Positions 36,700 through 52,308 of a DNA stretch of 64,000 nucleotides are shown in pieces. This stretch comes from Candidatus Binatia bacterium. Lineage in GTDB: Bacteria > Desulfobacterota > Binatia > Bin18. Position numbers and translations under genes: made by a program. Location: contig OY761159.2 in the NCBI GenBank assembly GCA_963664395.2, positions 1,568,001 through 1,632,000 of the forward strand. The letters are read 5' to 3'. Below the pieces are notes generated by a model. That model worked only from the letters and a program-made list of their open reading frames with translations. It searched no databases and was not told the origin of the DNA. The first letter of the stretch is position 1; each line of letters begins with the position of its first letter.

Positions 36700-38270
36700 T
36701 TACGGGAAGCGTACAAAGCTGAAGCGGCTTTTCTTCAGATCAGCCAAGAATGGCTGATCCTCACTTCTGAGCGTTTTCTCTATCCACACCTGATAGATCA
36801 AAAGCCAAAGGCGGTCTTTTTCTCGGGGGTCCGCGCCTCTGAGCTTTTTCGACCGCTCTCGGATTACGTTTTGAATACTTTTGATTCCGTGTCGTTTTGC
36901 ATACTCTCGTAGCAACACCATCGAAACGCAGTCATCGATTTCGATAATCTTTTTGGTGATCTCCTTTTCGAGCTTGTCCTCCGACATGTTGAATTGGAGG
37001 CCATATTTGAGCGAGTAGTACAGCGCGTGGGCGATGGCATCCGGGTAAATCCTCTGAATCCCAATCGCGAGGAGTTCATCAGCGAACTCACGCATAACTT
37101 TCTCCATTCCATCATAGCGATGTTTGTCGAAAACATGCTCGTCCAGGAGTGGAGCAAGATACGGATATAGCAATGCCAAGTTGACAACGTGTTGAACAAA
37201 AAGTCGCTTCGCTCGACGGTTGAGACGCTTAGGAATCATCTTGATAGCATAGTTCAAAACGGCATAGGTCTCCGCTCCGTGCGATAGCTTCAACGCTAAA
37301 TCTAGTAATGCTTGAACCGGCCCAAAGCTGATTTTTCCTTTGCCCGGAAATCGGAAACTGTTTAATGCTTGAACCCAATCCTCTTCCAGCGGCACAGGCA
37401 TGGGCAGAATGTCAGTCTTGCGTTCGTTCAGTGTAAGCTCGTACTCGCGTAACTGTATCGCAAGGTCATGGATGAAGTTCTCAGCTTCGTTGTGGGTTTT
37501 GGCGTAGAAAGTGTAGTCGTCGATATTACGACTAAACCCTTCGTATCCCTTCTGGAGCATCTTATGATCAATTTGGGTCAGTATTATCTCGGAAATAACA
37601 TTGGATGTGTGCGGCCCGATCAGGAGCCCGTTTGTCTGCCCGTCTCGGGTATTCTGAGTGGCTTTATCCAAAAGATTTCCCAACAACGAGAGGCGGTAGT
37701 TCTTTTTTGACTTGCTACGCCCATGCAGTGCCCATGGGATCGAGTGGGTGTAGATGCTGGGAAAGTATTTCGAGATGTCGGTACGGACGACATAGTGCGC
37801 ACCTGTCATCATATGAATATCTACCTCTTCGTTCTCGAAGCGTTCCTTTCCTTTGTAATTCATATGGAAAATACGCTTGCTCGAAGTTTTGCGAGCAAAG
37901 ATGCGGCTCACGGGCGTCTTCGGTTTCGCGCAGTGACTTTTTATTTTCGCCCAATGTCGCTTCAGGGCTAAGCACTGGACAATGTGGCTTTTAGGGTGGG
38001 GAACCCCATCTGACGAGGGATGTTAACATCACGCAGTGCTTCATAGCGGATGAAATCGTGTCTTGTTTTAAGAAGATTTTTCAACCTATTTTCATTGTTT
38101 TCCGTGATTAGCTCTAGAAGATTTTCCGGTATGAGTTTGGAAAGTCCTTCGGAGGTAAAACAGGGTGGAAGCTTTTCACCGAATAGACCGTAGTCAACCA
38201 AGCCTACGAACGCCTCGTCCGCCGAAAGACCGCGCCCTGTTGTTTGTCGCATGGACGTAAGCTCACTCAT
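36700..38270 (-). pseudogene. Abi/DRT-type defence reverse transcriptase (AbiK/DRT4-like), split by a single-base frameshift near 38004-38007
   Basis: N-half GLFGEKLPPCFTS...RDVNIPRQMG; C-half DISKYFPSIYTHSIPWA, GQTNGLLIGP, RNIDDY, LTLNERKT, helical C-terminus; adding one G to the GGGG run joins the two halves in frame. Confidence 0.85.
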
Positions 38271-41597: not shown

Positions 41598-43190
41598 TCA
41601 AATCTTCTTTTTTTGATTTGCGACATAGTCAACCAGGAGATATTCCCCAAGATTGTCCGGGCGGGTGTAAAAGGCACGGCCACGGTTCATCTTGGTCATT
41701 TTGTCCACAAAGGTCCGCAGGCTCGGACTGTCGTCGAGCATGAACGTATTAATCGTGACCCCCCGCTTGGTGACTTTCTCTACTTCGCGCAGGGTTTCCT
41801 GGGCCGCCCGCATACTGATCCCCCCAAAAGAGAGGGGCCATTCGCAATACAGCCGCCCCCGAGAAAAATACGCGGTGGGTTGGCCATCCGTCACCACGAT
41901 GATGTGTTGATTATGACCCGGGTGGCGGCGCAGCAGATCCCCGGCAAGACGCAGGCCGTCTTGTAGGTTGGTGAACGGGTCGCCCATATTCCAACTCGCC
42001 TCAGGCAAGTCTTTGATCTTGAGCTCCACCGCCCGCGTGAAAAAACCAACAATCGAGAAATAATCACGCGGATAGCGCGTCCGAATCAAACTCTCCAGCG
42101 CCAGCGCAACTTTTTTGGCGGCTCCGAATCGACCTTCCCAGCTCATGGACCAACTCATATCAAGGAGCAGGACGGTTGACGTTGTGGTCGTGTGGTCAGT
42201 ATCGAAGATCGTAAAGTCTTCCGGGTGGATAGACAGGGGGACGCCCGCGCTCCGCTGGATAGACTTTTTGAGCGTCCCGACCAGGTCGAGATGCATGGGG
42301 TCACCGTACTGGTACGGCCGCGTTTCGTCCATTTTGATCTCGGCAATACCGCGATGGTCTGTGGCGTGAGAGCCGTTCCGGTCGCGCAACAGATTGGCAT
42401 AGATGTCTTGCAGGGCGAGCTGGCCGATCCGCCGGACGCCTTTGGGCGACAACCGCACCCGGCCTTCGCGGGAGATCAGGAACCCGGATTCTTCTAACAA
42501 CGACTGCATCTGTTGGAGATTCTGAAAGTCCTGGCTGGCAGCCTGGCCAAGCAATTCCTGAAGCTGTTCCGGGTCTATCTTCTCCGGATGGCCTGACAGC
42601 AGGTTTTGCTCCATCTCCTGAAGCTGTTCCATTTCCTCCATCAGTTCCAGCGCCTCTTGATAGCTGAGCGGACGCGGTCCGTTAAACAGATCGTTGAAAC
42701 GGCGCTGAAAGTTCTCAAGCGAGTGAATATTGTCAAACTCCTGCATGAGCTCATCAAACGCGGCTTGCGCGGCTTCGTCCTCGAACGGATAGTCCGCCAG
42801 CTTCTCCATTTTCTCGCTCAGGCGTTGCGGCAACTGCTGGAGAAACTGCTCCTTCTCTTCGAGTGCGGGCTGCTGAGGCCGCTTCTGCTCCAGCGTGCGC
42901 TGCTCTTGATTCAGAATGGAGTCAAGACGCTCCTGCATCTCATCGAGCGAGGAGCGCATATTAGACTCACGGTAGCGTTTGCGCATCTCTTCGCGCAGGT
43001 CACGCACGAGATCGTCCAGACCCTTGAGCTTATCGTCCTCATCCCCCAGGCCCTGGCGCATGAGATGCTCAAGCGCCTGCTGCATATCATCCGTCGAGGA
43101 CAGATGTTCGGCCAGCTCTTCGAAGATTTTGTCGGCCGACAGCCGGACCCGTTGGCTGCCATCCCAGTCGGTATAGCGAATGGTGATCAT
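41598..43190 (-). CDS. VWA domain protein (partner of the AAA+ ATPase at 50881-52308)
   Basis: MIDAS LLDMSWSM, TNLQDGL, VTDGQPT; RYTDWDG N-terminus. Confidence 0.9.
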   Translation of the reverse strand: MITIRYTDWDGSQRVRLSADKIFEELAEHLSSTDDMQQALEHLMRQGLGDEDDKLKGLDDLVRDLREEMRKRYRESNMRSSLDEMQERLDSILNQEQRTLEQKRPQQPALEEKEQFLQQLPQRLSEKMEKLADYPFEDEAAQAAFDELMQEFDNIHSLENFQRRFNDLFNGPRPLSYQEALELMEEMEQLQEMEQNLLSGHPEKIDPEQLQELLGQAASQDFQNLQQMQSLLEESGFLISREGRVRLSPKGVRRIGQLALQDIYANLLRDRNGSHATDHRGIAEIKMDETRPYQYGDPMHLDLVGTLKKSIQRSAGVPLSIHPEDFTIFDTDHTTTTSTVLLLDMSWSMSWEGRFGAAKKVALALESLIRTRYPRDYFSIVGFFTRAVELKIKDLPEASWNMGDPFTNLQDGLRLAGDLLRRHPGHNQHIIVVTDGQPTAYFSRGRLYCEWPLSFGGISMRAAQETLREVEKVTKRGVTINTFMLDDSPSLRTFVDKMTKMNRGRAFYTRPDNLGEYLLVDYVANQKKKI

Positions 43191-43380
43191 GTCAGTCCGG
43201 AAGCACGGTCACGGAATGCCGGGATCATAGAGCAACCCGCCCGCCTTTACTATACCCACAGACCGGCGGGGCGGGGCAAAGGGGGCAGGGCTACTAGCTG
43301 GAGGGCCTGCTATACTGTCCTGTGGACATACGACGAGTTGATGAGCGGTAGACAGAGTCCACAAAGGAGAAAGGGTGAAC

Positions 43381-44016
43381 ATGAATTACGTCCTGATTGA
43401 CTTGGAAAATACGCAGCCGGAACACCTGAGTGTTTTAGCCGGGCAGAACTTCAGGGTTCTTGTTTTTGTGGGCCAGAACCAATCAAAGATATCGTTTGAT
43501 CTCGTATCCGCCATTCAGCATTTAGGGAAAAACGCCGAATACATCAAAATTCAAGGCAACGGACCAAACGCCCTTGATTTCCATATCGCGTTTTATATCG
43601 GCCAGTTTTCCACAGAAAACAGCGATTCCCATTTCCACATCATTTCAAAAGATAAAGGCTTCGACCCGCTGATTAAGCATCTTGAATCGAAAAAGATCCG
43701 GGTACACCGGCATCCGGCTATCAACGACATACCACTTACAAAGCCTGCAAAAGCGAAAAAAGAGCCTGCTCACGTTTCAAAACCTGCGAGTTCAGTAATA
43801 AAGGCGGAGAACATTCAGAAAATCGTTGAGTTCCTGATTGCCCGAGGGAATGCAAAACCAAGGAAATTGAAAACTCTGTCCAATTCGATCAATGCACTAT
43901 TTTCAAAAAGCTTAGCAGAGAACGAACTCGACGCTCTCATAGACGAACTGGTCAAGCGCGGCGTCGTTATTGTCAGCAGCAATCAGACCAGCGTGAGCTA
44001 TCAGTTGAAAGGGTAA
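43381..44016 (+). CDS. PIN-like (NYN/PIN7) nuclease domain with C-terminal winged-helix
   Basis: LIDLEN, NALDFHIAFYIG, IISKDKGFD; C-terminal PRKLKTLSNSI...LIDELVKRG. Confidence 0.8.
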   Translation: MNYVLIDLENTQPEHLSVLAGQNFRVLVFVGQNQSKISFDLVSAIQHLGKNAEYIKIQGNGPNALDFHIAFYIGQFSTENSDSHFHIISKDKGFDPLIKHLESKKIRVHRHPAINDIPLTKPAKAKKEPAHVSKPASSVIKAENIQKIVEFLIARGNAKPRKLKTLSNSINALFSKSLAENELDALIDELVKRGVVIVSSNQTSVSYQLKG

Positions 44017-44067
44017 TTGTTGAAGCGCTTCCCAATTGTGGTACAAAATGACCGAGAGTAATCGCTA

Positions 44068-44529
44068 ATGATACGTCATGTGTTTCTGAGCTTTTCTATG
44101 GGGGACGAGGGCATTGTCAACGTCTTTCGCGGCCAAGCGGCGAACAGGCAATCGGTCCTGGTGTTTCATGACTACTCCATCAAGGAAGCATTTGAGTCCA
44201 CTTGGAAAATGAAGGCGGAACGTCTCATCCGCGCCTGTAGTGTCACTATATGTTTGATTGGCAAAACAACGTATCGGAGCAAAGCTGTCGATTGGGAGAT
44301 CAGAAGGAGCGCGGAACTAGGGAAGACCGTCATGGCGGTTTCCATTGAGCCGACGGCGCCAAGAGTTCCGCCGGCCCTTACGGAACTGAACGTGCAACCC
44401 CAGCCGTGGGATATGGAGAGAATAATAGGGGAGTTGAATGACCTCGGAACCGAATACGGTCGAACAAGAGCTTTTCGGAGAGCACGAATCTGGAACGTTG
44501 AACGAGACCGAAGCCTCGACACTGCTTGA
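44068..44529 (+). CDS. TIR domain protein (ThsB / MTH538-like)
   Basis: VFLSF, DYSIK, SVTICLIGKTTYRSKAVDWEI with catalytic Glu. Confidence 0.85.
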   Translation: MIRHVFLSFSMGDEGIVNVFRGQAANRQSVLVFHDYSIKEAFESTWKMKAERLIRACSVTICLIGKTTYRSKAVDWEIRRSAELGKTVMAVSIEPTAPRVPPALTELNVQPQPWDMERIIGELNDLGTEYGRTRAFRRARIWNVERDRSLDTA

Positions 44530-44965
44530 ACAGTACAAACTCTTTGTGGGAACCTCGGAAGCTCTGGTCTCTCGTCGGCAGCAAGTCAATACTTTCTTCC
44601 TTTCTGTCAATTCCATCATCCTTGCGGCTACGGGTCTCCTCATACGTGAGAAAACGGCAAATAGCTTAGTCGGTCCCGCCCTCATCGTGCTCGGTATGGG
44701 CGGAATGGCTCTCTGTTTCGCATGGCGGCGAATGATATTGTCCTTTGGTCAACTCAACCGGGGCAAGTTCGATGTCATCCATGCCCTCGAACGCAGACTG
44801 CCAGCCCGGACTTTTACCGCGGAATGGGTCGCTCTGGGACAAGGTAAGGATCCGTCTAAGTACAAGCCGTTTACGCGAACAGAGTCGTTGACCCCGTGGA
44901 TATTCGGTATGCTTGAAACATTGGTGGTCGTTGCTGGAGTCGTTCTATGGTTCTGGCAGGGATAG
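44438..44965 (+). CDS. 3-TM membrane protein (RipA/octameric-membrane-protein-like), putative effector
   Basis: LLEQYKLFV...SRRQQVNTFFLSVNS, QLNRGKFDVIHALERRLP...EW; three hydrophobic helices; family call from memory. Confidence 0.75.
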   Translation: MTSEPNTVEQELFGEHESGTLNETEASTLLEQYKLFVGTSEALVSRRQQVNTFFLSVNSIILAATGLLIREKTANSLVGPALIVLGMGGMALCFAWRRMILSFGQLNRGKFDVIHALERRLPARTFTAEWVALGQGKDPSKYKPFTRTESLTPWIFGMLETLVVVAGVVLWFWQG

Positions 44966-44969
44966 AATA

Positions 44970-45413
44970 ATGAGCACACATCAAATCCACGTTTTTATCA
45001 GTCACTCCTGGGCCTATTCAAATCATTACGACACTTTGGAGGATTGGATATTCAACCGGAAATGGAGTCGAGGTCAGGCATCTCTCGACTTTCGGGATTT
45101 TTCCGTTCCAAGGAATGACCCAATTCATAATGCACCCTCCGACCGAGCACTCAGAGAGGCAATCTTTAACCAAATAGTCAGGTGTCACGTGGTCGTGATT
45201 CCGTTGGGAATGTATGCCACTTACAGTAAGTGGATCAGGAAAGAAATCGACGGTGCTAAACGCTACACAAAACCAATACTTGGCGTAAACCCGCAGGGAC
45301 AGGAACATCGCTCCTCTATCGTGGCCAATGCTGCACAAGAAACGGTTGGTTGGAACAGTAAAAGTGTCGTCGGGGCCATAGCTTGTATCGTGATTAAGCT
45401 CACTTCCGGCTAA
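44970..45413 (+). CDS. Second TIR domain protein (ThsB / MTH538-like)
   Basis: VFISHSWAY, DFSVPRNDPIH, GMYATYSKWIRKEI with catalytic Glu, KPILGV, VGWNSKSVV; ATG 4 nt after upstream stop. Confidence 0.88.
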   Translation: MSTHQIHVFISHSWAYSNHYDTLEDWIFNRKWSRGQASLDFRDFSVPRNDPIHNAPSDRALREAIFNQIVRCHVVVIPLGMYATYSKWIRKEIDGAKRYTKPILGVNPQGQEHRSSIVANAAQETVGWNSKSVVGAIACIVIKLTSG

Positions 45414-45432
45414 TAATTTCGAGACAGTCGTT

Positions 45433-45738
45433 ATGGTGGAACGTCCGGTCACACATTTGCAGAATCCTCCCCATCCGGGCGCAATCGTCAGACGCCAGTG
45501 TCTCGCGCCTCTCGGCCTGTCCGTTACCAGGGCCGCCAAAGGCTTGGGAGTCACGCGCCAAGCGCTCTCCGATCTCGTCAACGGCAGGGCTGGAGTCTCG
45601 GTCGAAATGGCGGTCCGATTGTCAAAAGCCTTCGGGTCGAGCCCGGAGACATGGCTCGGTATGCAGATGGCCTACGACCTCTGGCACGCGCGGGATAGAG
45701 TCGAGCAGATCACCGTCGAGAAGTTCGAGAGCGCGTAG
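45433..45738 (+). CDS. higA: Orphan HigA-family antitoxin
   Basis: PPHPG, AAKGLGVTRQALSDLVNG, SPETWLGMQMAYDL; no toxin upstream. Confidence 0.85.
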   Translation: MVERPVTHLQNPPHPGAIVRRQCLAPLGLSVTRAAKGLGVTRQALSDLVNGRAGVSVEMAVRLSKAFGSSPETWLGMQMAYDLWHARDRVEQITVEKFESA

Positions 45739-45754
45739 GCGTAGTTCCCGCATC

Positions 45755-45867
45755 CTCAAGAGGGCAATTCTGCGGCGCTTGGTCAAAGAGAGATTCGCGT
45801 GAAGCAAAAGGACTGTGAACGCTTGGTAAAAAGTGTCAAGCAGGCAGGAGCGATTCGCACGCAATGA
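45755..45867 (+). pseudogene. Remnant of a RelE/HigB toxin 3' end overlapping a truncated HTH antitoxin 5' end
   Basis: ...ILRRLVKERFA* overlaps (GTGA) MKQKDCERLVKSVKQAGAIRTQ*, resembling HigB2/NadS-type TA junctions. Confidence 0.5.
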
Positions 45868-45901: not shown

Positions 45902-46171
45902 CTATGCCGCTTTCCTTGCCCGCGCAGCTTTATCGAGATCGTAGGTTGCCTGGAGATTCAGCCACACCTTCGGCGTCGTGCCGAGAACGGCGGCGAGGTC
46001 CAGCGCCGCGGCGGCAGTGACGCCACGCTTTCCGCGAATGAGTTCGTTCAGTCGGGTCCTCGTCCAACCGACCTTCGCGGCGAATGCCGCTTGGCTTATT
46101 CCTTGAGGCGCGAGAAATTCCTCCAAGAGGATTTCGCCTGGGTGAAACGGATTCTTCGGTTGTCTCGCCAT
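45902..46171 (-). CDS. higA: HigA antitoxin
   Basis: HPGEILLEEFL, ISQAAFA, WLNLQATYDL. Confidence 0.93.
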   Translation of the reverse strand: MARQPKNPFHPGEILLEEFLAPQGISQAAFAAKVGWTRTRLNELIRGKRGVTAAAALDLAAVLGTTPKVWLNLQATYDLDKAARARKAA

Positions 46172-46183
46172 TACGCCTGCTCC

Positions 46184-46474
46184 TTATAAATGGTAATCAA
46201 CGACTTGAACATTGAACGCACTCCCCGCACGCCATTGAAAGACCAGCCGCCATTGCCTGTCAATGCGGATCGAGTAGAAACCGTCCCATTCCCCTTTCAA
46301 CTTCTCCAGCCGATTACCAGGTGGGACCCGAAGGTCTCGTAAGTCAGCCGCGTCATGCAGAAAGAGCAGCTTCCGCCGGGCAGTCCGACGAAGCGACACT
46401 GGTAACGTCCGCACAGCGCGTCCGCTATCGTCAAACAGTTGCTCAGCCAGCGCGTTGCCGAATGTCTCAATCAC
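46184..46474 (-). CDS. higB: HigB (RelE/ParE superfamily) toxin
   Basis: DLRVPPGNRLEKLKG, YSIRIDRQWRLVF, VDYH. Confidence 0.93.
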   Translation of the reverse strand: MIETFGNALAEQLFDDSGRAVRTLPVSLRRTARRKLLFLHDAADLRDLRVPPGNRLEKLKGEWDGFYSIRIDRQWRLVFQWRAGSAFNVQVVDYHL

Positions 46475-46669: not shown

Positions 46670-47617
46670 ATGGAATATACAAACCAACAGCTCAACAACT
46701 ACGTCAACCGGATTAAGCTCACTCAGGAACAAAAATCGTCTTACGCGAATCAAATTGACAATTTGAAAGACAATGTTCTCAAAGCCGTTAATGGCATGGA
46801 GAACACTAAAGTAACGAAGGTCAAAAGAGCAGGTTCGTGGAAGAAAAGCACCGCTCTGGCACCAAAGGGAGACTATCCTCTCGATATAGACATGGTGTTC
46901 TACCTAGCCCTTAAAGAAGATGCTTCGTTTGACGCCGAGGAGCTTCGGGAGGAGATTATCAGCGTACTGTGCGAGGCATATCCTAACAAGGAAAGATCAG
47001 ATTTTACTGATGGTCAAAAGACTATTGGCGTCGTATTCAGGGGCTCCGGCCTTGAGGTGGATATTGTGCCGTTTATCCCGGAAAAGGGTAACACGACCTA
47101 TGGTAGACAACCTCGAAAAAAACTCAATTCAGGCGAGTTCAAAACCAGCGTTGACAAGCAATTGGATTTTGTAAGCAAAATAAAAGACAAGTGCTCTAAT
47201 TTCACTTCTATTGTTCGCATCCTGAAAAGTTGGAGAAACTATAAGGAGCTGGAACTTTCCTCTTTCTCCATTGAATTGGCAGTAGCCAATTTGATCCAGA
47301 CAGGGAGAATATCTGACTCTTCAATAAACCAAACAATTATCACTTTCTTCGAGTTTTTCGGTAACGGTACTCCCGTCAAGGTGTACTTCTCAGGGGCTAT
47401 CGGACCACAAACTGGCAGTGCTCCGTGGATAGCAGATCCAACGAACAACGAGAACAATACGGTCAGACTATCTGATAGCGAATGGGACGAGGTTATGGAA
47501 ATAGCCGAAAGCGGCTTTGAGAGCATTTCTTATGCACAAACCGTACAAGAGACCGGAAAAACATTGGATTTATGGAAGGAAGTTTTTGGACCAAGTTTCA
47601 ATATTAAGGAGGGATAA
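46670..47617 (+). CDS. CBASS cyclic oligonucleotide synthase (CD-NTase, CdnC/CdnD-like)
   Basis: AGSWKKSTAL...LDIDM (GS and DxD), EVDIVP, RILKSWR, LSSFSIEL, DPTNNENN, WKEVFG. Confidence 0.92.
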   Translation: MEYTNQQLNNYVNRIKLTQEQKSSYANQIDNLKDNVLKAVNGMENTKVTKVKRAGSWKKSTALAPKGDYPLDIDMVFYLALKEDASFDAEELREEIISVLCEAYPNKERSDFTDGQKTIGVVFRGSGLEVDIVPFIPEKGNTTYGRQPRKKLNSGEFKTSVDKQLDFVSKIKDKCSNFTSIVRILKSWRNYKELELSSFSIELAVANLIQTGRISDSSINQTIITFFEFFGNGTPVKVYFSGAIGPQTGSAPWIADPTNNENNTVRLSDSEWDEVMEIAESGFESISYAQTVQETGKTLDLWKEVFGPSFNIKEG

Positions 47618-47623
47618 TACCTA

Positions 47624-48106
47624 ATGAGCACTATTACGCAGACATATACCAGAACAGATATCCGTAAAGCTTTTGAAAACTTCCAGGCAGACCTGCAAAT
47701 GCTTGCTGTAAGGACGCAAGCAATGGAATTAGATCATGCACAGAAGTGTACCTATGATGTCTGTTTAATGGCCCAAGCGGGGTGTTTGAGGCGCGTCCAT
47801 ATACAATTGTATGACTCCTATGGAAATCTCATAAAAGTTCATCGGTATTCCGTGAAAGAAGATATATTACCAGACTCCCAAAGGCCAGGAGGAAATAGAT
47901 GGCCATGCTTACCTGACGGTAGCCTATGCGTAATAGTGGAATACTCTGATAACCAAGAGGCGGAAAAGCTTCAAAGATCAAGGACGTTAAAACTACATTG
48001 GAGCCCTTCATCTTTGTCAACTAATTACTCTGGAATGCGAAACGATAGCGAAAGACTCTATTCCAGTAATAGCTACGGATTACGGCGCGACACATTCGTG
48101 AACTGA
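47624..48106 (+). CDS. cap7: Bacterial HORMA domain protein
   Basis: STITQTYTRTDIRK...ADL N-terminus and YSSNSYGLRR C-terminus typical of bacterial HORMA; position between CD-NTase and AAA+. Confidence 0.82.
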   Translation: MSTITQTYTRTDIRKAFENFQADLQMLAVRTQAMELDHAQKCTYDVCLMAQAGCLRRVHIQLYDSYGNLIKVHRYSVKEDILPDSQRPGGNRWPCLPDGSLCVIVEYSDNQEAEKLQRSRTLKLHWSPSSLSTNYSGMRNDSERLYSSNSYGLRRDTFVN

Positions 48107-48119
48107 ATAAGGCAAAACA

Positions 48120-49010
48120 ATGGTGCAAAGTACGTTTGATACTCAACGAGAACTCCCATCACGTGAGTTAGAAAGTATTGCCGAAACCCTTATCGGCTTC
48201 GAGAGGCACTATGAAGCATTGAAAAACCATCTAATGGCAGTATTGATGCCCGACCGTATAGATAAGTGGAGTAAGGAGCACCACAAACAAATTATTCCAT
48301 TATGTAAGGTAATCCGGCAAAGGTACCCACTTTTTCTCTTTAGCGGGGATGTTGGGACGGGAAAGACCGTGACGGCTGAGTGTGCCGCAAACCGGTTGAC
48401 AAAGGATATGGGCAAAGAGGGTTTTCTCCTTAAGCTGAGCACCCGGGTGAGAGGTAAGGGGCTGCATGGAGAAATGAGTCAGCTTATCCAGGATGCCTTT
48501 GAAAATCTGACAATCCAGGCGGGTAAAAAACGATTGTCCTTTCTACTGATAGACGAGGCAGATTCCATCGCCTCGCTTCGGTCTACCGAACAGATGCACC
48601 AGGAAGAAAAGGCTGCCGTCAATACGCTGATACAGAAAATTGATGAGATTCGCCAAGTAGGCGGTCGAGCGGTTGTGTTTTTGTGTACTAATAGAGCAAA
48701 TATCATTGATCAGGCTGTCGTTAGGCGCGCCGCGTTACACATAGAATTTTCTCGACCGAATAAAGAAGAGTGTCTGAAATTATTAGCACATGATCTTGAA
48801 GGAGTAGGTTTGACATCGGAAGAACTCAGTGAATTAGCGTCTCTCACTTCAGCAGGAGGGCATTATGGCGATAATGGCTATACATTCTCAGATTTCCGAT
48901 TGCGGTTTTTTCCAGAAGCTCTCACTCGATCCTTTCCAGACCGGGCGCTGACATTTGGTATCTTAAAAGAAACAGTGCTGGCTGTGAGACCGAGCCCTCG
49001 GATTGACTAA
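48120..49010 (+). CDS. cap6: TRIP13/Pch2-like AAA+ ATPase
   Basis: GDVGTGKT, RVRGKGLHGEMS, LLIDEADS, QMHQEEKAAVNTLIQ, TNR. Confidence 0.9.
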   Translation: MVQSTFDTQRELPSRELESIAETLIGFERHYEALKNHLMAVLMPDRIDKWSKEHHKQIIPLCKVIRQRYPLFLFSGDVGTGKTVTAECAANRLTKDMGKEGFLLKLSTRVRGKGLHGEMSQLIQDAFENLTIQAGKKRLSFLLIDEADSIASLRSTEQMHQEEKAAVNTLIQKIDEIRQVGGRAVVFLCTNRANIIDQAVVRRAALHIEFSRPNKEECLKLLAHDLEGVGLTSEELSELASLTSAGGHYGDNGYTFSDFRLRFFPEALTRSFPDRALTFGILKETVLAVRPSPRID

Positions 49011-49011
49011 A

Positions 49012-49566
49012 ATGCAAGACGGCGATGTTCAATCAAGCCAGGAGCTTCTCAAAAAATTGAGAAGAAAAGCGGAACTTTGCCGATTTGCTCACTCGGAGTT
49101 AAAAGCAAAATATAGTAGGTGTCGAAGCCTGAAGGAATTTTCGGTTACTTTATTGTCTGTAGTTCTGGCAGGGCTAATCGGTTTTTATTATCGAAAAGTA
49201 TTGGAGGGTGATTTGATATTGTCGTTCATCTTCATCCTACCTCTTGCCACAACGCTAGTACAGGCGCTGGATTGCACTATATTTCAGTGGACACACAAAG
49301 TAGCCCGGCACGAGTCAGCAGTAGCAATTTGGGGAGATTGGATTAGAGAGGCAGATTTTCTTGAGAAGCGCATCCATCAGTATTCAAGTGATTTGGCGAA
49401 TGAAAAGATGCAGAATATACAAGAAAAATATAACGGTTGTATGGGTAATACAGAACAAATACCAAATAGCAAGTTCCTAATATACAAAAAGAAATTCAGA
49501 GCGTATGTGTTGAAATCCAAGGAAATTGATGAGATGTCCTTGGAAGATATAGATAGAGGGAAATAG
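49012..49566 (+). CDS. SLATT-like 2TM CBASS effector
   Basis: AH...Y preceding two TM helices (SVTLLSVVLAGLIGF; LILSFIFILPLATTLV), then W...H and a helical tail ending IP..KF. Confidence 0.7.
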   Translation: MQDGDVQSSQELLKKLRRKAELCRFAHSELKAKYSRCRSLKEFSVTLLSVVLAGLIGFYYRKVLEGDLILSFIFILPLATTLVQALDCTIFQWTHKVARHESAVAIWGDWIREADFLEKRIHQYSSDLANEKMQNIQEKYNGCMGNTEQIPNSKFLIYKKKFRAYVLKSKEIDEMSLEDIDRGK

Positions 49567-49577
49567 AGAGAAAAAAG

Positions 49578-50417
49578 TTGAAAGAGCGTAAAAAAAAGTT
49601 ACCTGCCGCACAAGAAGAAAGACTAGAGTTCGTTGAACTCCTTGCCTATTTCAACGGCACAGTGAGTCGCGATGAAATTATGAATAGATTTGGCATATCT
49701 GCGGCATCCGCTACCAATATATTGTCGAAGTATAGCCAAATGGCTCCTGAAAACCTCGGCTATAACGTACACCTCAAACGCTATGAGATTGGCAAATCTT
49801 TCAAGCCGGTTTTCAATGTTCGCATGTTGATCGAGCGTATCCCTGTGTACACCATGCCTCAGTTACACAAACCGGCTGACAACGATGTGATTGAAAGAAT
49901 CGCCCTAATATCAAGAGCCATTCAGAGAACACAATCACTGGCCATCACCTACTCTTCTGCTTCTAGTGGAAGAAGCACGCGGCAAATTGTCCCTGTTGCT
50001 TTTGCTGATAATTGGCTGCGGTGGCATTTACGTGCATACGATAGAAAACGAGAACAATATGTCGATTTTGTTTTCAGAAGAATTTTAGAAGTGCGCCCAA
50101 TTGAAGGTGATACGATACAGGGTCACGAACACCCGAAGAATGACAAACAATGGCATTCGTTTATTGACTTAAGAATAAAAGCACATCCACACAATCTGGC
50201 GGATGTCCAGGCTTTTACTATGGGTACTGATATTCATCGTGTGAGGATTCGTGCGGCTATGGCTGGATATTTTCTTCAGCTTTGGAACGTCGACTGTTCC
50301 CCAGATGCGAATCTAAAAGGGAAGGAATATCAGTATGTTTTGGCGAATGTGGCGGAAGTCGCTAAAGTAGCGGATTTAGGGTTAGCCCCCGGCTATAATG
50401 GTGAAATACAAAATTGA
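49578..50417 (+). CDS. capW: CapW-like wHTH-WYL-WCX transcriptional regulator
   Basis: ERLEFVELLAYFNGTVSRDEIMNRFGIS (wHTH), YSSASSG...RWHLRAYDR...DF...RI (WYL), RAAMAGYFLQLWNVDCS. Confidence 0.85.
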   Translation: MKERKKKLPAAQEERLEFVELLAYFNGTVSRDEIMNRFGISAASATNILSKYSQMAPENLGYNVHLKRYEIGKSFKPVFNVRMLIERIPVYTMPQLHKPADNDVIERIALISRAIQRTQSLAITYSSASSGRSTRQIVPVAFADNWLRWHLRAYDRKREQYVDFVFRRILEVRPIEGDTIQGHEHPKNDKQWHSFIDLRIKAHPHNLADVQAFTMGTDIHRVRIRAAMAGYFLQLWNVDCSPDANLKGKEYQYVLANVAEVAKVADLGLAPGYNGEIQN

Positions 50418-50880: not shown

Positions 50881-52308
50881 CTAGGCGCGATAGGTGTGGC
50901 GTCCGCCCTGGCGTTCTTTGTTCAGCTTCTGATGCAAGTGCAGCCCTTCCAGGATGAACTCGGTTGCAGTGGAAATGAATCTGGGCTGGCCGGCAACGCC
51001 TAATACCGCCAGACTCTCCTGCATCCCTTGGATGTGTTGCACGCCTTCCAGGTATTCCTGAGACGGCATCATATCCGAAATTTCAACTCCCCCACCGTTC
51101 ACGAAATAGTCGATGACGGGCTTGAGATTTTCGATCTTGATATATTTGTCAAAAACTTTCTGGACGGCACGATTCACCAAACGCTCAATGAGGTCTCCAT
51201 CTTTCTGCTCTTCGCCCATGTATTCCAGCTCAATTTTTCCCGCAGTAGAGGGATAGAGCGCGTACAGGTCGCTGATGCGAGGCACCACATCGTGCTCGCC
51301 CAGGCGTACGGCTCGTTTCTCGGCATTACTGACCAGGCTCTCGAAGTTGTTGATCGTCATGCGGACACTCACCCCGGAGGATTGATTGATTTCGTTTGAG
51401 CCGCGCGCCTCCATGGTGAGTTGGGCACATATCTCTTTCATGAACCGTGGGGTGTCAACCACGAGGCCGTCATACGCGAAGCGGGCCGCTTCCTGCTCCA
51501 TAATGGAGATTTCTTCCTCAAGAGAGCGCGGGTAGTGGGTGCGAATTTGGACGTCAAAACGATCTTTCAGCGGAGTGATGATGCGCCCCCGACTCGTATA
51601 GTCTTCAGGATTCGCACTCGCCACAATAATGACATCGAGCGGCAGACGGACCTTGAAGCCTTTGACCTGAAAGTCTTGTTCTTCCATGAGATTGAACAGG
51701 CTAACCTGCACTTTCTCAGTCAGGTCGGGCAATTCGTTGACCGCGAAGATGCCGCGGTTCGTCCTGGGGATCAAACCGTAGTGGATGGTCTCCTCATCGG
51801 CCAGATAGCGCCCTTCGGCAACTTTAATCGGATCAACCTCACCGATGAGGTCGGCAACGGACACATCCGGCGTAGCCAGCTTCTCGGCATAGCGCTCGTC
51901 GCGTGACAGCCAGCTGACTTCAAGCGCCTCGCCGCGTTCTTCGGCGAGGCGACGCGCTTGTGGAGAGATAGGCGCCAGGGGATTCTCCGGAATTTCACTA
52001 TCACGAATAGTCGGCACATAGTCGTCCAGAAAGACTGTCAAGCCACGAATCACACGCGATTTTGCCTGCCCGCGCTCACCCAGAAAGACGATGTGATGCC
52101 CAGCCAGAACAGCATTTTCGATCTCTGGAATAACTGTCTCATCATAACCGATAATGCCAGGGAGCAAATTCCCCCCCACGGAGAGCCTACGGATCAAATT
52201 CGCCCGCATCTCTTCTCGCACGGAAAGCACTTGATAATCTACTTTCTTGAGGTCACCAACCGTCTGGACTTCACGACGGAGCGTTTCAGTTGGAATCGTC
52301 TGGTGCAC
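50881..52308 (-). CDS. Mg-chelatase/MoxR-like AAA+ ATPase
   Basis: LGERGQAKSR, EKLATPD, RGIFAVNELPDL, SANPEDYTSRGRIITPLKDRF. Confidence 0.9.
   Translation of the reverse strand: MHQTIPTETLRREVQTVGDLKKVDYQVLSVREEMRANLIRRLSVGGNLLPGIIGYDETVIPEIENAVLAGHHIVFLGERGQAKSRVIRGLTVFLDDYVPTIRDSEIPENPLAPISPQARRLAEERGEALEVSWLSRDERYAEKLATPDVSVADLIGEVDPIKVAEGRYLADEETIHYGLIPRTNRGIFAVNELPDLTEKVQVSLFNLMEEQDFQVKGFKVRLPLDVIIVASANPEDYTSRGRIITPLKDRFDVQIRTHYPRSLEEEISIMEQEAARFAYDGLVVDTPRFMKEICAQLTMEARGSNEINQSSGVSVRMTINNFESLVSNAEKRAVRLGEHDVVPRISDLYALYPSTAGKIELEYMGEEQKDGDLIERLVNRAVQKVFDKYIKIENLKPVIDYFVNGGGVEISDMMPSQEYLEGVQHIQGMQESLAVLGVAGQPRFISTATEFILEGLHLHQKLNKERQGGRHTYRA

Follow-up and report, generated by a model that had tools for sequence, protein, structure and literature searches.

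A conserved TIR/8xMP membrane protein cassette in a defence island of a Candidatus Binatia bacterium, a candidate member of the Thoeris family

Analysis of a genomic window of 64,000 nucleotides from a Candidatus Binatia bacterium revealed a cassette on the plus strand in which two genes for ThsB-type TIR proteins (TIR1 and TIR2) flank a gene for a membrane protein of the 8xMP/RipA family with three transmembrane (TM) segments. The balance tips slightly toward an anti-phage cassette of the Thoeris family, in which the 8xMP/RipA-family protein would act as the membrane effector in place of ThsA. This reading is supported by the domain identities, the conserved Glu residues, the conservation of the cassette and the exchange of effectors among relatives of TIR1. 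The original prediction had described the locus as an atypical or undescribed TIR immune system, with TIR sensors feeding a membrane effector. The conserved cassette, the lack of a type I, II or IV effector and the lack of a recognizable signal-binding domain, each within the searches given below, stand; the novelty of the class and the broadening of sensing by several TIR proteins do not.

Results and discussion

Gene arrangement

TIR1 is encoded at 44068-44529 (153 aa) and the membrane protein, the presumed effector, at 44438-44965 (175 aa); the third ORF is listed at 44913-45413 with a TTG start. Because related downstream TIR proteins open with the consensus MSTHxIH, the ATG at 44970 is supported as the start of TIR2, which then spans 44970-45413 on the plus strand (147 aa). 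The last 92 nt of TIR1 overlap the 8xMP gene, which is followed by TIR2 after a gap of 4 nt; the predicted tight coupling of the three genes was confirmed by the ORF coordinates and by inspection of the start codons. Since the 8xMP homologues have the full-length N-terminus in common, the overlap is real and no start-codon artefact. A Shine-Dalgarno-like GGGGAG, read from the sequence at 44427-44432 of the plus strand within the TIR1 coding region, lies 5 nt upstream of the ATG of the 8xMP gene (44438) and may serve its translation. A scan of positions 43150-45800 gave no promoter-like and two terminator-like sites, which is not above the result for shuffled sequences.

Metatranscriptome contigs from two runs of one study are identical to the window at 44302-44573 and 44331-44634, i.e. 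at the TIR1/8xMP junction, and a contig from another study, about 95% alike, spans 44479-44763. With a depth of 2-4 and a possible carry-over of DNA, these contigs give a weak hint of expression only, and nothing can be read from the stretches that they leave uncovered.

A gene for a PIN7-domain protein (43375-44016, plus strand, 213 aa, PIN7 E-value 6.7e-33) is located 51 nt 5' of TIR1 and may be an accessory gene. It was rejected as a core component, as its position upstream of TIR1 is conserved in no more than 2 of 79 loci (from the best 80 of 326 described below), namely the closest ones, L003 and L004. On the Polaromonas plasmid pH8NP2, a PIN-domain gene lies 3' of the TIR+8xMP pair.

The two TIR proteins

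The ThsB_TIR family of Pfam (PF08937) matches TIR1, a minimal ThsB-type TIR, with an E-value of 2.3e-11 and TIR2 with 3.2e-15. PADLOC ThsB models also match the TIR proteins, and TIR2 is further related to MTH538 (1eiw, E-value 5.7e-4). The closest relative of TIR1 by sequence among solved structures is BcTir (8fz9, E-value 9.3e-9). Both proteins carry a putative catalytic Glu as predicted, Glu77 of TIR1 (VDWEI) and Glu92 of TIR2 (WIRKEI), and they are as dissimilar as had been stated, with 22.5% identity over a short stretch and an E-value of 0.5. Glu77 aligns with the Glu of the VRYEI motif in solved ThsB (6lhy/9b7d), which we take to be the catalytic residue, E85 of B. cereus ThsB. It is present in 81 of 81 rows of an alignment of TIR1-like (T1-like) proteins, and Glu92 is found in about 33 of 36 TIR2-type (T2) rows.

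The invariance of Glu77 has to be weighed against a toxin-antitoxin-like arrangement, in which the membrane protein would be a constitutive toxin restrained by binding of the TIR protein with no NAD chemistry. Small overlapping genes, a small membrane-active protein and plasmid sites among toxin-antitoxin modules would suit such a pair. However, a purely structural antitoxin is hard to reconcile with a Glu that is kept in every T1-like row, and we regard this arrangement as extremely improbable.

The three proteins of the cassette differ in their divergence. The median identity to the window is 48.7% for T1, 57.1% for 8xMP and 65.7% for T2, and the T1 identity is the lowest in 27 of 28 loci when compared with 8xMP and in 28 of 28 when compared with T2. 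TIR1 is the fastest-evolving component, which fits a phage-facing sensor. TIR2, as the most conserved protein of the cassette, is a poor fit to a diversifying sensor, and the two sister loci nearest to the window lack it. Both observations sit badly with the original proposal that several TIR proteins broaden sensing. Strong matches to the T2 profile number four in 401 genomes of the phylum, and all four adjoin an 8xMP gene.

The membrane protein

The middle protein matches the Pfam family 8xMP (PF24838) with an E-value of 1.2e-33 and 116.2 bits, the curated cut-off being 30. One source annotates a homologue as 'RipA family octameric membrane protein'. With this name and the Pfam match, the assignment to RipA/octameric membrane proteins in the original prediction proved right, and the LLEQYKL...SRRQQVNTFFL motif on which it had drawn is present in the sequence. 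Hydropathy analysis gave three hydrophobic segments centred near residues 60, 85 and 162, and the AF2 model of the monomer (pLDDT 72.9) has three long helices at residues 23-70, 78-120 and 146-174, in agreement with the three hydrophobic helices expected. From hydropathy and K/R counts, an N-in/C-out topology is predicted. The polar residues R46, R47, K110, E118, E129 and W130 form invariant alignment columns and would lie on the cytoplasmic face, and an ELF motif is conserved in the N-terminal tail. These conserved residues are the sole basis for a putative ligand pocket.

No nucleotide-binding domain was recognizable in the Pfam, PADLOC, PDB sequence and profile, and Foldseek searches, which bears out the description of an effector with no recognizable signal-binding domain. 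Neither PADLOC nor NCBIfam models matched the protein, the PDB contained 0 matches at the sequence or profile level, and a Foldseek search of the PDB with the AF2 monomer gave nothing at an E-value of 0.001 or below; its top row, the ClyA pore with an E-value of 0.42, was left uninterpreted. For the homologue P0088, the nearest named cluster in the ESM Atlas was PycTM (score 0.76, share 11%), which is under the level of a lead. A complex prediction with two copies of 8xMP and TIR1, supplied as alignments, scored 0.00 and has no bearing on binding either way.

RipA, the namesake of the family, is presumably an envelope-related factor of Francisella, and to our knowledge the function of the RipA family is so far unexplained. 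The literature that could be searched yielded no article on the 8xMP (PF24838) family and nothing relevant on DUF7701, a domain associated with some 8xMP proteins (see below). One article retrieved as RipA literature (PMC13028475) was rejected, as it concerns RIPA buffer. In the sample of the phylum, a TIR ORF detected by HMM accompanies only 3 of 17 8xMP loci over the cut-off, and one of the loci over the cut-off sits between mnmE and gidB, a non-defence context. The wider 8xMP family is without an intrinsic link to TIR proteins.

Genomic setting and conservation of the cassette

The predicted location in a defence island was confirmed. Pfam and PADLOC scans revealed a DRT4-like reverse transcriptase (36700-37911), a HigBA-like pair and a type III CBASS (46670-49566) composed of CD-NTase, HORMA, TRIP13 and a 2TM effector, and the G+C content dips across 43 to 50 kb. 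SIR2, SLOG, Macro and caspase domains were found in none of the genes scanned at 33.8-54.8 kb of the 64-kb window, so the claim that such genes are missing holds for the genes scanned. The flanking ORFs of related loci include BREX, DISARM/IIG, DRT, Wadjet and RM genes according to PADLOC, which was run on 117 of the 271 flanking ORFs of at least 200 aa (a random sample of 149 that was then reduced to a residue limit); some flanks carry metabolic genes. As these are counts per family with no baseline, no defence enrichment of the flanks is claimed.

A motif scan of contigs from one genome per species yielded 326 8xMP relatives. Of the best 80, which were kept, 79 yielded a central ORF. In 73 of these 79 loci (best 80 of 326) a TIR ORF on the same strand ends at the 8xMP start; three further upstream TIR genes (L022, L024 and L059) were masked by an over-long call of the central ORF, which raises the count to 76 of 79. 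The upstream TIR is T1-like in most of the loci, and a T2-like gene follows 3' of 8xMP in about 27-28 of the 79, always within the best 80 of 326. An independent Pfam tally for loci of the same set is in agreement, as ThsB_TIR accounts for 73 of 96 upstream and 25 of 91 downstream candidate ORFs. These counts overstate the independence of the loci because related loci are kin.

The genome from which the window derives contains a second TIR+8xMP pair, which adjoins hsdR. In RefSeq, plasmids of Polaromonas and Haematospirillum and of the archaeon Haladaptatus encode a 'TIR domain-containing protein' directly 5' of an 8xMP homologue. Plasmid copies are located among toxin-antitoxin modules. Binatota, Acidobacteriota, Rhodothermota and Chloroflexota are among the phyla with the cassette, which is also present on haloarchaeal plasmids; the distribution of the TIR-linked 8xMP clade is patchy over many phyla, plasmids and archaea. 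Neither the 8xMP profile nor the T1 profile found a match in G110, a genome of the same genus. The combination of TIR and membrane protein is supported as a conserved cassette and no chance neighbourhood, in answer to the question of co-occurrence across genomes that accompanied the original prediction.

Exchange of effectors among relatives of TIR1

The seven best matches to the T1 profile in the 401 genomes of the phylum, those of the window's own genome set aside, adjoin different partners. Three are located next to a caspase (Peptidase_C14), and one each next to SLATT_1/DUF4231, TPR-S, RyR/AAA_5 and a helicase. In a quick tree of TIR proteins, from which T1-like ORFs longer than 175 aa were omitted and in which only 5 T2 rows were included, the caspase-linked TIR proteins nest within the 8xMP-linked ones (SH-aLRT 97 and 100); some of the rows labelled 8xMP are extra TIR ORFs of their locus, and the rows L001own2 and L077 do represent the adjacent TIR partner. 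Thoeris type IV uses a caspase-like effector and type VII a SLATT protein. The presence of both beside TIR1 relatives suggests that 8xMP occupies a swappable effector slot. The pairing of TIR1 relatives with known Thoeris effectors follows the same logic that nominates new Thoeris types, and this conclusion is supported.

This exchange also bears on a housekeeping role, in which a RipA-like ring would function in envelope physiology with MTH538/ThsB-like proteins as nucleotide-processing partners, the island being incidental. Such a role would be in keeping with the distant 8xMP members in non-defence contexts such as mnmE–gidB, with the metabolic genes in some flanks of related loci and with the presumed envelope role of Francisella RipA. 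However, the TIR-linked clade is patchy across phyla, plasmids and archaea, has hsdR, toxin-antitoxin modules, CBASS, BREX and DRT among its neighbours and is without a profile match in the same-genus genome G110, and relatives of its TIR proteins are paired with caspase or SLATT effectors instead. We therefore consider a housekeeping role very unlikely.

Comparison with known TIR systems

The available passages of the 2025 preprint of Yirmiya et al. (bioRxiv 10.64898/2025.12.03.692087) describe type V Thoeris as a TIR protein with a 3-TM ring effector that is gated by 3'cADPR, and type VII as a TIR protein with a SLATT effector, both with no classical sensor domain. Thus, a TIR system with a small membrane effector of this kind is no longer an undescribed class, which the original prediction had considered it might be. 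Type V (ThsB + ThsF/DUF2270) resembles the cassette in that a minimal ThsB-type TIR is located beside a small 3-TM protein, modelled in type V as a circular homo-oligomer. However, its effector belongs to PF10028 and the middle protein studied here to PF24838, and the present loci often have a second TIR family that is dedicated to them, together with variants carrying DUF7701 and fusions of a TIR to the effector. DUF2270 gave no Pfam match to the middle protein at an E-value of 0.1 or below and hhalign probabilities of 0.2% and 0.5%, with a DUF2270 profile of 7 sequences only, for which a very remote kinship is still possible.

Type VII (ThsB + SLATT ThsH) likewise combines a TIR protein with a small TM effector, and a T1-like TIR of the phylum adjoins SLATT_1/DUF4231. 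The layouts of SLATT and 8xMP are loosely similar (an N-terminal helix, a TM hairpin and a QLN-containing helix), but 8xMP has a third TM segment. SLATT gave no Pfam match to the middle protein and an hhalign probability of 0.8% for a 5-sequence SLATT profile against the 101-row 8xMP alignment; with a single SLATT sequence a weak 13.9% was reached, so that remote kinship is possible. At the available sensitivity of Pfam and hhalign, kinship of 8xMP to DUF2270 and to SLATT was rejected.

Types I, II and IV share with the cassette a ThsB-type TIR with conserved Glu and may likewise have several TIR genes to one effector, but differ in the effector itself. Type I has a SIR2-SLOG ThsA, which is found neither in the cassette nor in the neighbours scanned. 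The type II effector is a TM protein with a Macro domain, whereas the middle protein matches only PF24838 at an E-value of 0.1 or below. Type IV has a caspase-like effector; no Peptidase_C14 occurs in the genes scanned, although relatives of TIR1 elsewhere do adjoin caspases. For types VI and VIII-XI, the available passages of 10.64898/2025.12.03.692087 name DUF6650, CMP hydrolase, ThsJ (type IX), ion channel and hydrolase effectors, with the nature of ThsJ left undescribed there; in Pfam the middle protein matches PF24838 alone. The BcTir/BcTpr pair is comparable in that BcTir is the nearest solved protein to TIR1 by sequence and, in one locus of the phylum, a TPR-S protein comes after a T1-like TIR, but the partner is a TPR protein there and a membrane protein here.

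The features shared with the Thoeris family are a ThsB-type TIR that keeps its Glu, a conserved TIR-effector operon and a TIR clade shared with other effectors. Neither a paper naming a TIR/8xMP cassette nor an experimental study of any member was found in the literature, and PADLOC has no model for 8xMP. The cassette is a candidate new Thoeris type, possibly already contained among the 29 putative types that the available part of 10.64898/2025.12.03.692087 mentions.

Mode of action

As a Thoeris-family system, the cassette would detect infection through TIR1, its fastest-evolving component. Glu77 of TIR1 would convert NAD+ into an ADP-ribose-derived signal, which would bind the conserved positive cytoplasmic face (R46, R47, K110) of a homo-oligomeric 3-TM ring. 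The 8xMP ring would then breach or depolarize the inner membrane, and infection would be aborted. TIR2, a second, optional ThsB-type TIR dedicated to the 8xMP family, may provide a second source of signal or an amplifier.

Natural gene fusions have to be considered here. In 3 of the 79 loci (L052, L081 and L082; best 80 of 326) a T1-like TIR is joined to the N-terminus of 8xMP, each time with a separate T2-like gene 5' of the fusion; such fusions occur in Sporomusa-like genomes. DUF7701 takes the same N-terminal position, fused or as a separate gene, and an ELF/VLFPSGPP linker motif is conserved after TIR or DUF7701 in all forms. Together with the 92-nt overlap of TIR1 and 8xMP, which is maintained in the nearest clade, the three fusions are more easily explained by direct coupling than by a signal that diffuses. 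They point to a tentative alternative, in which TIR1 would sit on the cytoplasmic N-termini of an 8xMP ring that serves as membrane scaffold or sensor, docked here and covalently fused in some genomes; a membrane or phage cue would rearrange the ring and cluster the TIR domains, and NAD+ would be depleted, the TIR itself being the toxic effector; ring-held TIRs such as SARM1 provide the analogy. BcTir, which according to the available part of 10.1101/2023.05.26.542521 has no NADase activity and works in a protein complex, likewise counts against the mechanism outlined above, its action in a complex being in line with the alternative, and the available passages of 10.64898/2025.12.03.692087 caution that the TIR of an unverified type may itself be the effector and deplete NAD. 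On the other hand, the clade contains minimal TIR proteins (about 130 aa) that are paired in other genomes with caspase and SLATT effectors, where they make signals according to the cited work, fusions are rare with separate genes in most loci, and known signal-gated membrane effectors are similar to a 3-TM ring whose charged residues on the cytoplasmic side are conserved. Rather doubtful is a RipA-family ring that would serve as a platform for up to eight TIR1 at its N-termini, docked in the present cassette and fused in Sporomusa-like genomes, with the highly conserved TIR2 or, in other lineages, DUF7701 as obligate co-factor; the ring would then be the sensor or scaffold of a TIR machine anchored in the membrane. 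We retain the signal-gated Thoeris-family effector as our main reading.

Conclusions

The importance of the cassette would be smaller if it is already among the 29 putative types, of which the available part of 10.64898/2025.12.03.692087 speaks. If it is defensive, the RipA-type membrane ring would be a further effector family in TIR signalling immunity, occurring in phyla that are under-sampled by laboratory screens (Binatota, Acidobacteriota, Rhodothermota, Chloroflexota) and on haloarchaeal plasmids. The two dedicated TIR families and the natural fusions could reveal how a membrane assembly is gated by a TIR product or by the TIR itself, and the cassette could indicate a new signal molecule. 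Should the ring instead prove to be a platform for TIR1, TIR immunity would gain a new logic and the RipA family a molecular function. The cassette could also be a first entry point to the function of the 8xMP/RipA family.

Organization of the cassette and its proteins

According to the ORF listing, the genes for TIR1 (44068-44529, 153 aa) and for a membrane protein (44438-44965, 175 aa) lie on the plus strand and are followed on the same strand by the gene for TIR2, which extends over 44913-45413 by the longest-ORF rule. Since TIR2 homologues begin with the consensus MSTHxIH, the ATG at 44970 is its likely start (44970-45413, 147 aa). By these coordinates the first two genes overlap by 92 nt and the last two are separated by 4 nt; the ORFs are thus where the original prediction had placed them, and its observation on the trio as a whole is confirmed. 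The TIR1/membrane gene overlap is real, as homologues of the membrane protein retain its whole N-terminus including a conserved ELF motif. The sequence GGGGAG is located 5 nt upstream of the membrane-gene ATG at 44438.

Both TIR proteins match ThsB_TIR in Pfam (E 2.3e-11 for TIR1, 3.2e-15 for TIR2) and were scored as ThsB-like by PADLOC; NCBIfam gave no match for any of the three proteins. As had been proposed, the two TIRs are dissimilar: their alignment is confined to a short stretch of 22.5% identity (E 0.5), and they are unrelated beyond the fold. Both also keep the predicted glutamate: Glu77 of TIR1 (VDWEI) is present in 81/81 T1-like sequences and Glu92 of TIR2 (WIRKEI) in about 33 of 36. 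In an alignment with the solved ThsB structures 6lhy and 9b7d, Glu77 falls on the Glu of VRYEI, which we take to be the catalytic residue.

The middle protein belongs to the 8xMP family (PF24838; E 1.2e-33, score 116 bits, cut-off 30), and one homologue is named 'RipA family octameric membrane protein' in one source, in agreement with the family likeness suggested at the outset; no PADLOC model covers it. The three anticipated hydrophobic helices correspond to segments with midpoints around residues 60, 85 and 162. Nine K/R residues in the loop 101-149 and an RR immediately before TM1 suggest an N-in, C-out topology. The AF2 monomer is all-helical (pLDDT 72.9), and R46, R47, K110, E118, E129 and W130 are conserved in the alignment.

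Conservation and variation of the cassette

A motif scan of one-genome-per-species contigs yielded 326 relatives of the membrane protein, of which the best 80 were fetched; a central ORF could be called in 79 of these loci. Pfam detected ThsB_TIR in 73/96 upstream candidate ORFs, the window's own counted, and in 25/91 downstream ones. Counted per locus with a TIR HMM built from Pfam-verified seeds, an adjacent same-strand upstream TIR is present in 73/79 loci among the best 80 of 326 relatives, and in three more (L022, L024 and L059) it is masked by an over-long central ORF. Two loci (L073, L075) have TIRs on the opposite strand only, and in one (L063) the TIR HMM found none. A downstream TIR was detected in 28/79 loci. 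TIR and membrane genes thus co-occur in these loci, and the cassette is a real, widespread TIR system of two or three genes.

The window's form, T1/8xMP/T2, was found in 23 loci and T1/8xMP in 17. T1 with a DUF7701-8xMP fusion accounts for 18 loci, plus a few with extra TIRs, T1/DUF7701/8xMP as separate genes for four, and a T2-like gene with a T1-like-8xMP fusion for three (L052, L081, L082). DUF7701, for which our literature search found no paper mentioning it, is a helical domain of roughly 90 aa, either fused to the 8xMP N-terminus or encoded between TIR and 8xMP. It occurs, fused or separate, in about 27/79 loci (L045-L080, e.g. L047:3653-4468). A T2-type TIR lies downstream in only one of these about 27 loci; DUF7701 and T2 thus hardly ever occur together, which may reflect phylogeny. 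In two loci (L026:3989-4561, L030:3854-4966) the central ORF scores TIR2-like, in L030 extending to about the TIR2 gene end of close relatives. This seems more likely to be a sequencing or ORF-calling artefact, since the TIR would fall at the predicted periplasmic C-terminus.

Across 28 loci with all three proteins, which are kin and not independent, T1, 8xMP and T2 share a median of 48.7%, 57.1% and 65.7% identity, respectively, with their counterparts in the window; T1 lies below 8xMP in 27/28 and below T2 in 28/28. TIR2 is the most constrained of the three proteins. TIR1, having the lowest identity of the trio, thus appears to behave like the phage-facing part.

The window's genome carries a second TIR-8xMP pair (G000:C1:2400775-2401645; L001 1474-2371, minus strand), whose membrane protein is 27% identical to the first. 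It lacks TIR2, adjoins hsdR (type I restriction R subunit) and is preceded by a 328-aa protein with no family match. On plasmids of Polaromonas, Haematospirillum and the archaeon Haladaptatus, an annotated 'TIR domain-containing protein' lies directly 5' of the homologue. Polaromonas plasmid pH8NP2 (L120 357-5513) has the order hsdR, TIR, 8xMP homologue, PIN-domain protein; hsdR adjacency is thereby seen twice (with the L001 pair), as is a neighbouring PIN nuclease gene (with the window's PIN7).

Within the phylum, PF24838 exceeded the cut-off in 18/401 genomes, and only the three strongest of 17 fetched over-cut-off loci have a TIR ORF by the TIR HMM; neighbours at the others include mnmE/gidB, an integrase, a UvrD-like gene and the like. 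It is therefore one 8xMP clade, and not the family as a whole, that is linked to TIR genes. The T2 profile matched 7/401 genomes at E <= 1e-5, and since all four strong matches (E <= 7e-52, own included) adjoin an 8xMP gene, T2 is dedicated to the 8xMP effector.

The genomic island

G+C content is 0.42-0.51 at 43-50 kb versus 0.56-0.60 outside, and the low-G+C stretch contains the cassette and the PIN7 gene. Directly 3' of TIR2 lies an HTH_3 (Xre-type) gene (45433-45738, plus strand), convergent with a HigB/HigA-like pair (45902-46474, minus strand); a similar pair occurs near the cassette in the related locus L070. A complete type III CBASS operon follows on the plus strand with CD-NTase (46670-47617), HORMA (47624-48106), TRIP13 (48120-49010) and a 187-aa 2TM effector (49003-49566; PADLOC 'Effector 2TM', E 1.7e-12), succeeded by a WYL-domain regulator (49578-50417, plus strand). 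A DRT4-like defence reverse transcriptase (36700-37911, minus strand; PADLOC Drt4, E 1.3e-123) may start further upstream or be N-terminally short, as its match begins at profile position 112. With the CBASS, DRT4-like and HigBA-like genes in or near this stretch, the defence-island setting was recognized correctly.

The stretch is bracketed by a VWA-domain gene (41598-43190) and a MoxR-like AAA gene (50881-52308), both on the minus strand. Such genes are usually adjacent; here roughly 7.7 kb of low-G+C defence genes set them apart. The sister Binatia record L004 shares VWA-PIN7-TIR1-8xMP with the window and then diverges. Together, these sequence features suggest stepwise insertion into a MoxR-VWA locus. 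VWA-PIN7-TIR1-8xMP is common to the two nearest sister loci, where homology ends at 44973 and 45016; these loci thus lack TIR2. Sequencing runs from about 10 studies, several of them labelled sponge metagenome, contain DNA nearly identical to 43300-45500. At low depth, parts of PIN7 are represented in metatranscriptome contigs, as are the TIR1/8xMP junction and the TIR2 3' end.

Relation to Thoeris systems and possible mechanism

The T1 profile matched 20/401 genomes. At the seven best non-own places the neighbour is a caspase (Peptidase_C14) in three, and SLATT_1/DUF4231, a TPR-S protein, RyR/AAA_5 genes and a helicase in one each. In a quick tree, not a finished careful search, the caspase-linked TIRs cluster with the 8xMP-linked ones, the own genome's second TIR included (SH-aLRT 97). 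According to the preprint text, Yirmiya et al. (bioRxiv 10.64898/2025.12.03.692087) nominate new Thoeris types on the basis of such effector swapping, with types V-XI verified and 29 predicted in all. As described there, type V combines ThsB with ThsF (DUF2270), a 3-TM protein that 3'cADPR triggers and whose model is a ring bearing positive pockets, and type VII employs a SLATT effector and cADPR. On paper, the cassette would work in the same way as types V and VII; however, its effector is PF24838 and not DUF2270 or SLATT. No Pfam match to either family was obtained for the effector, and profile comparison gave 0.2% and 0.5% with DUF2270 and 0.8% (profile) or 13.9% (single sequence) with SLATT. 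Type V or VII membership was therefore rejected by the features tested. PF24838, RipA and 8xMP are absent from the running text of the preprint, which lists its unverified effectors in Figure 1C and Tables S1-S3.

Alternatively, TIR1 could be tethered to the 8xMP ring and itself be the NADase effector. Natural TIR-8xMP fusions, the TIR1/8xMP gene overlap and the occupation of the N-terminal 8xMP position by DUF7701 fit this main rival, as does the caveat in the text of Yirmiya et al. that the TIR in unverified types may be a NAD-depleting effector; we regard it as rather unlikely. That the cassette has a housekeeping function or forms a TA-like module are minor alternatives.

The original interpretation is supported in part: the pairing of TIR and membrane protein is conserved and widespread, but its view of two TIR sensors is hard to reconcile with TIR2, the most constrained of the three proteins. 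We lean, with some reserve, towards a Thoeris-type system in which TIR1 would sense infection and make a NAD-derived signal. This signal would gate a ring of the 3-TM protein via the conserved cytoplasmic residues, and the gated ring may then breach or depolarise the membrane.
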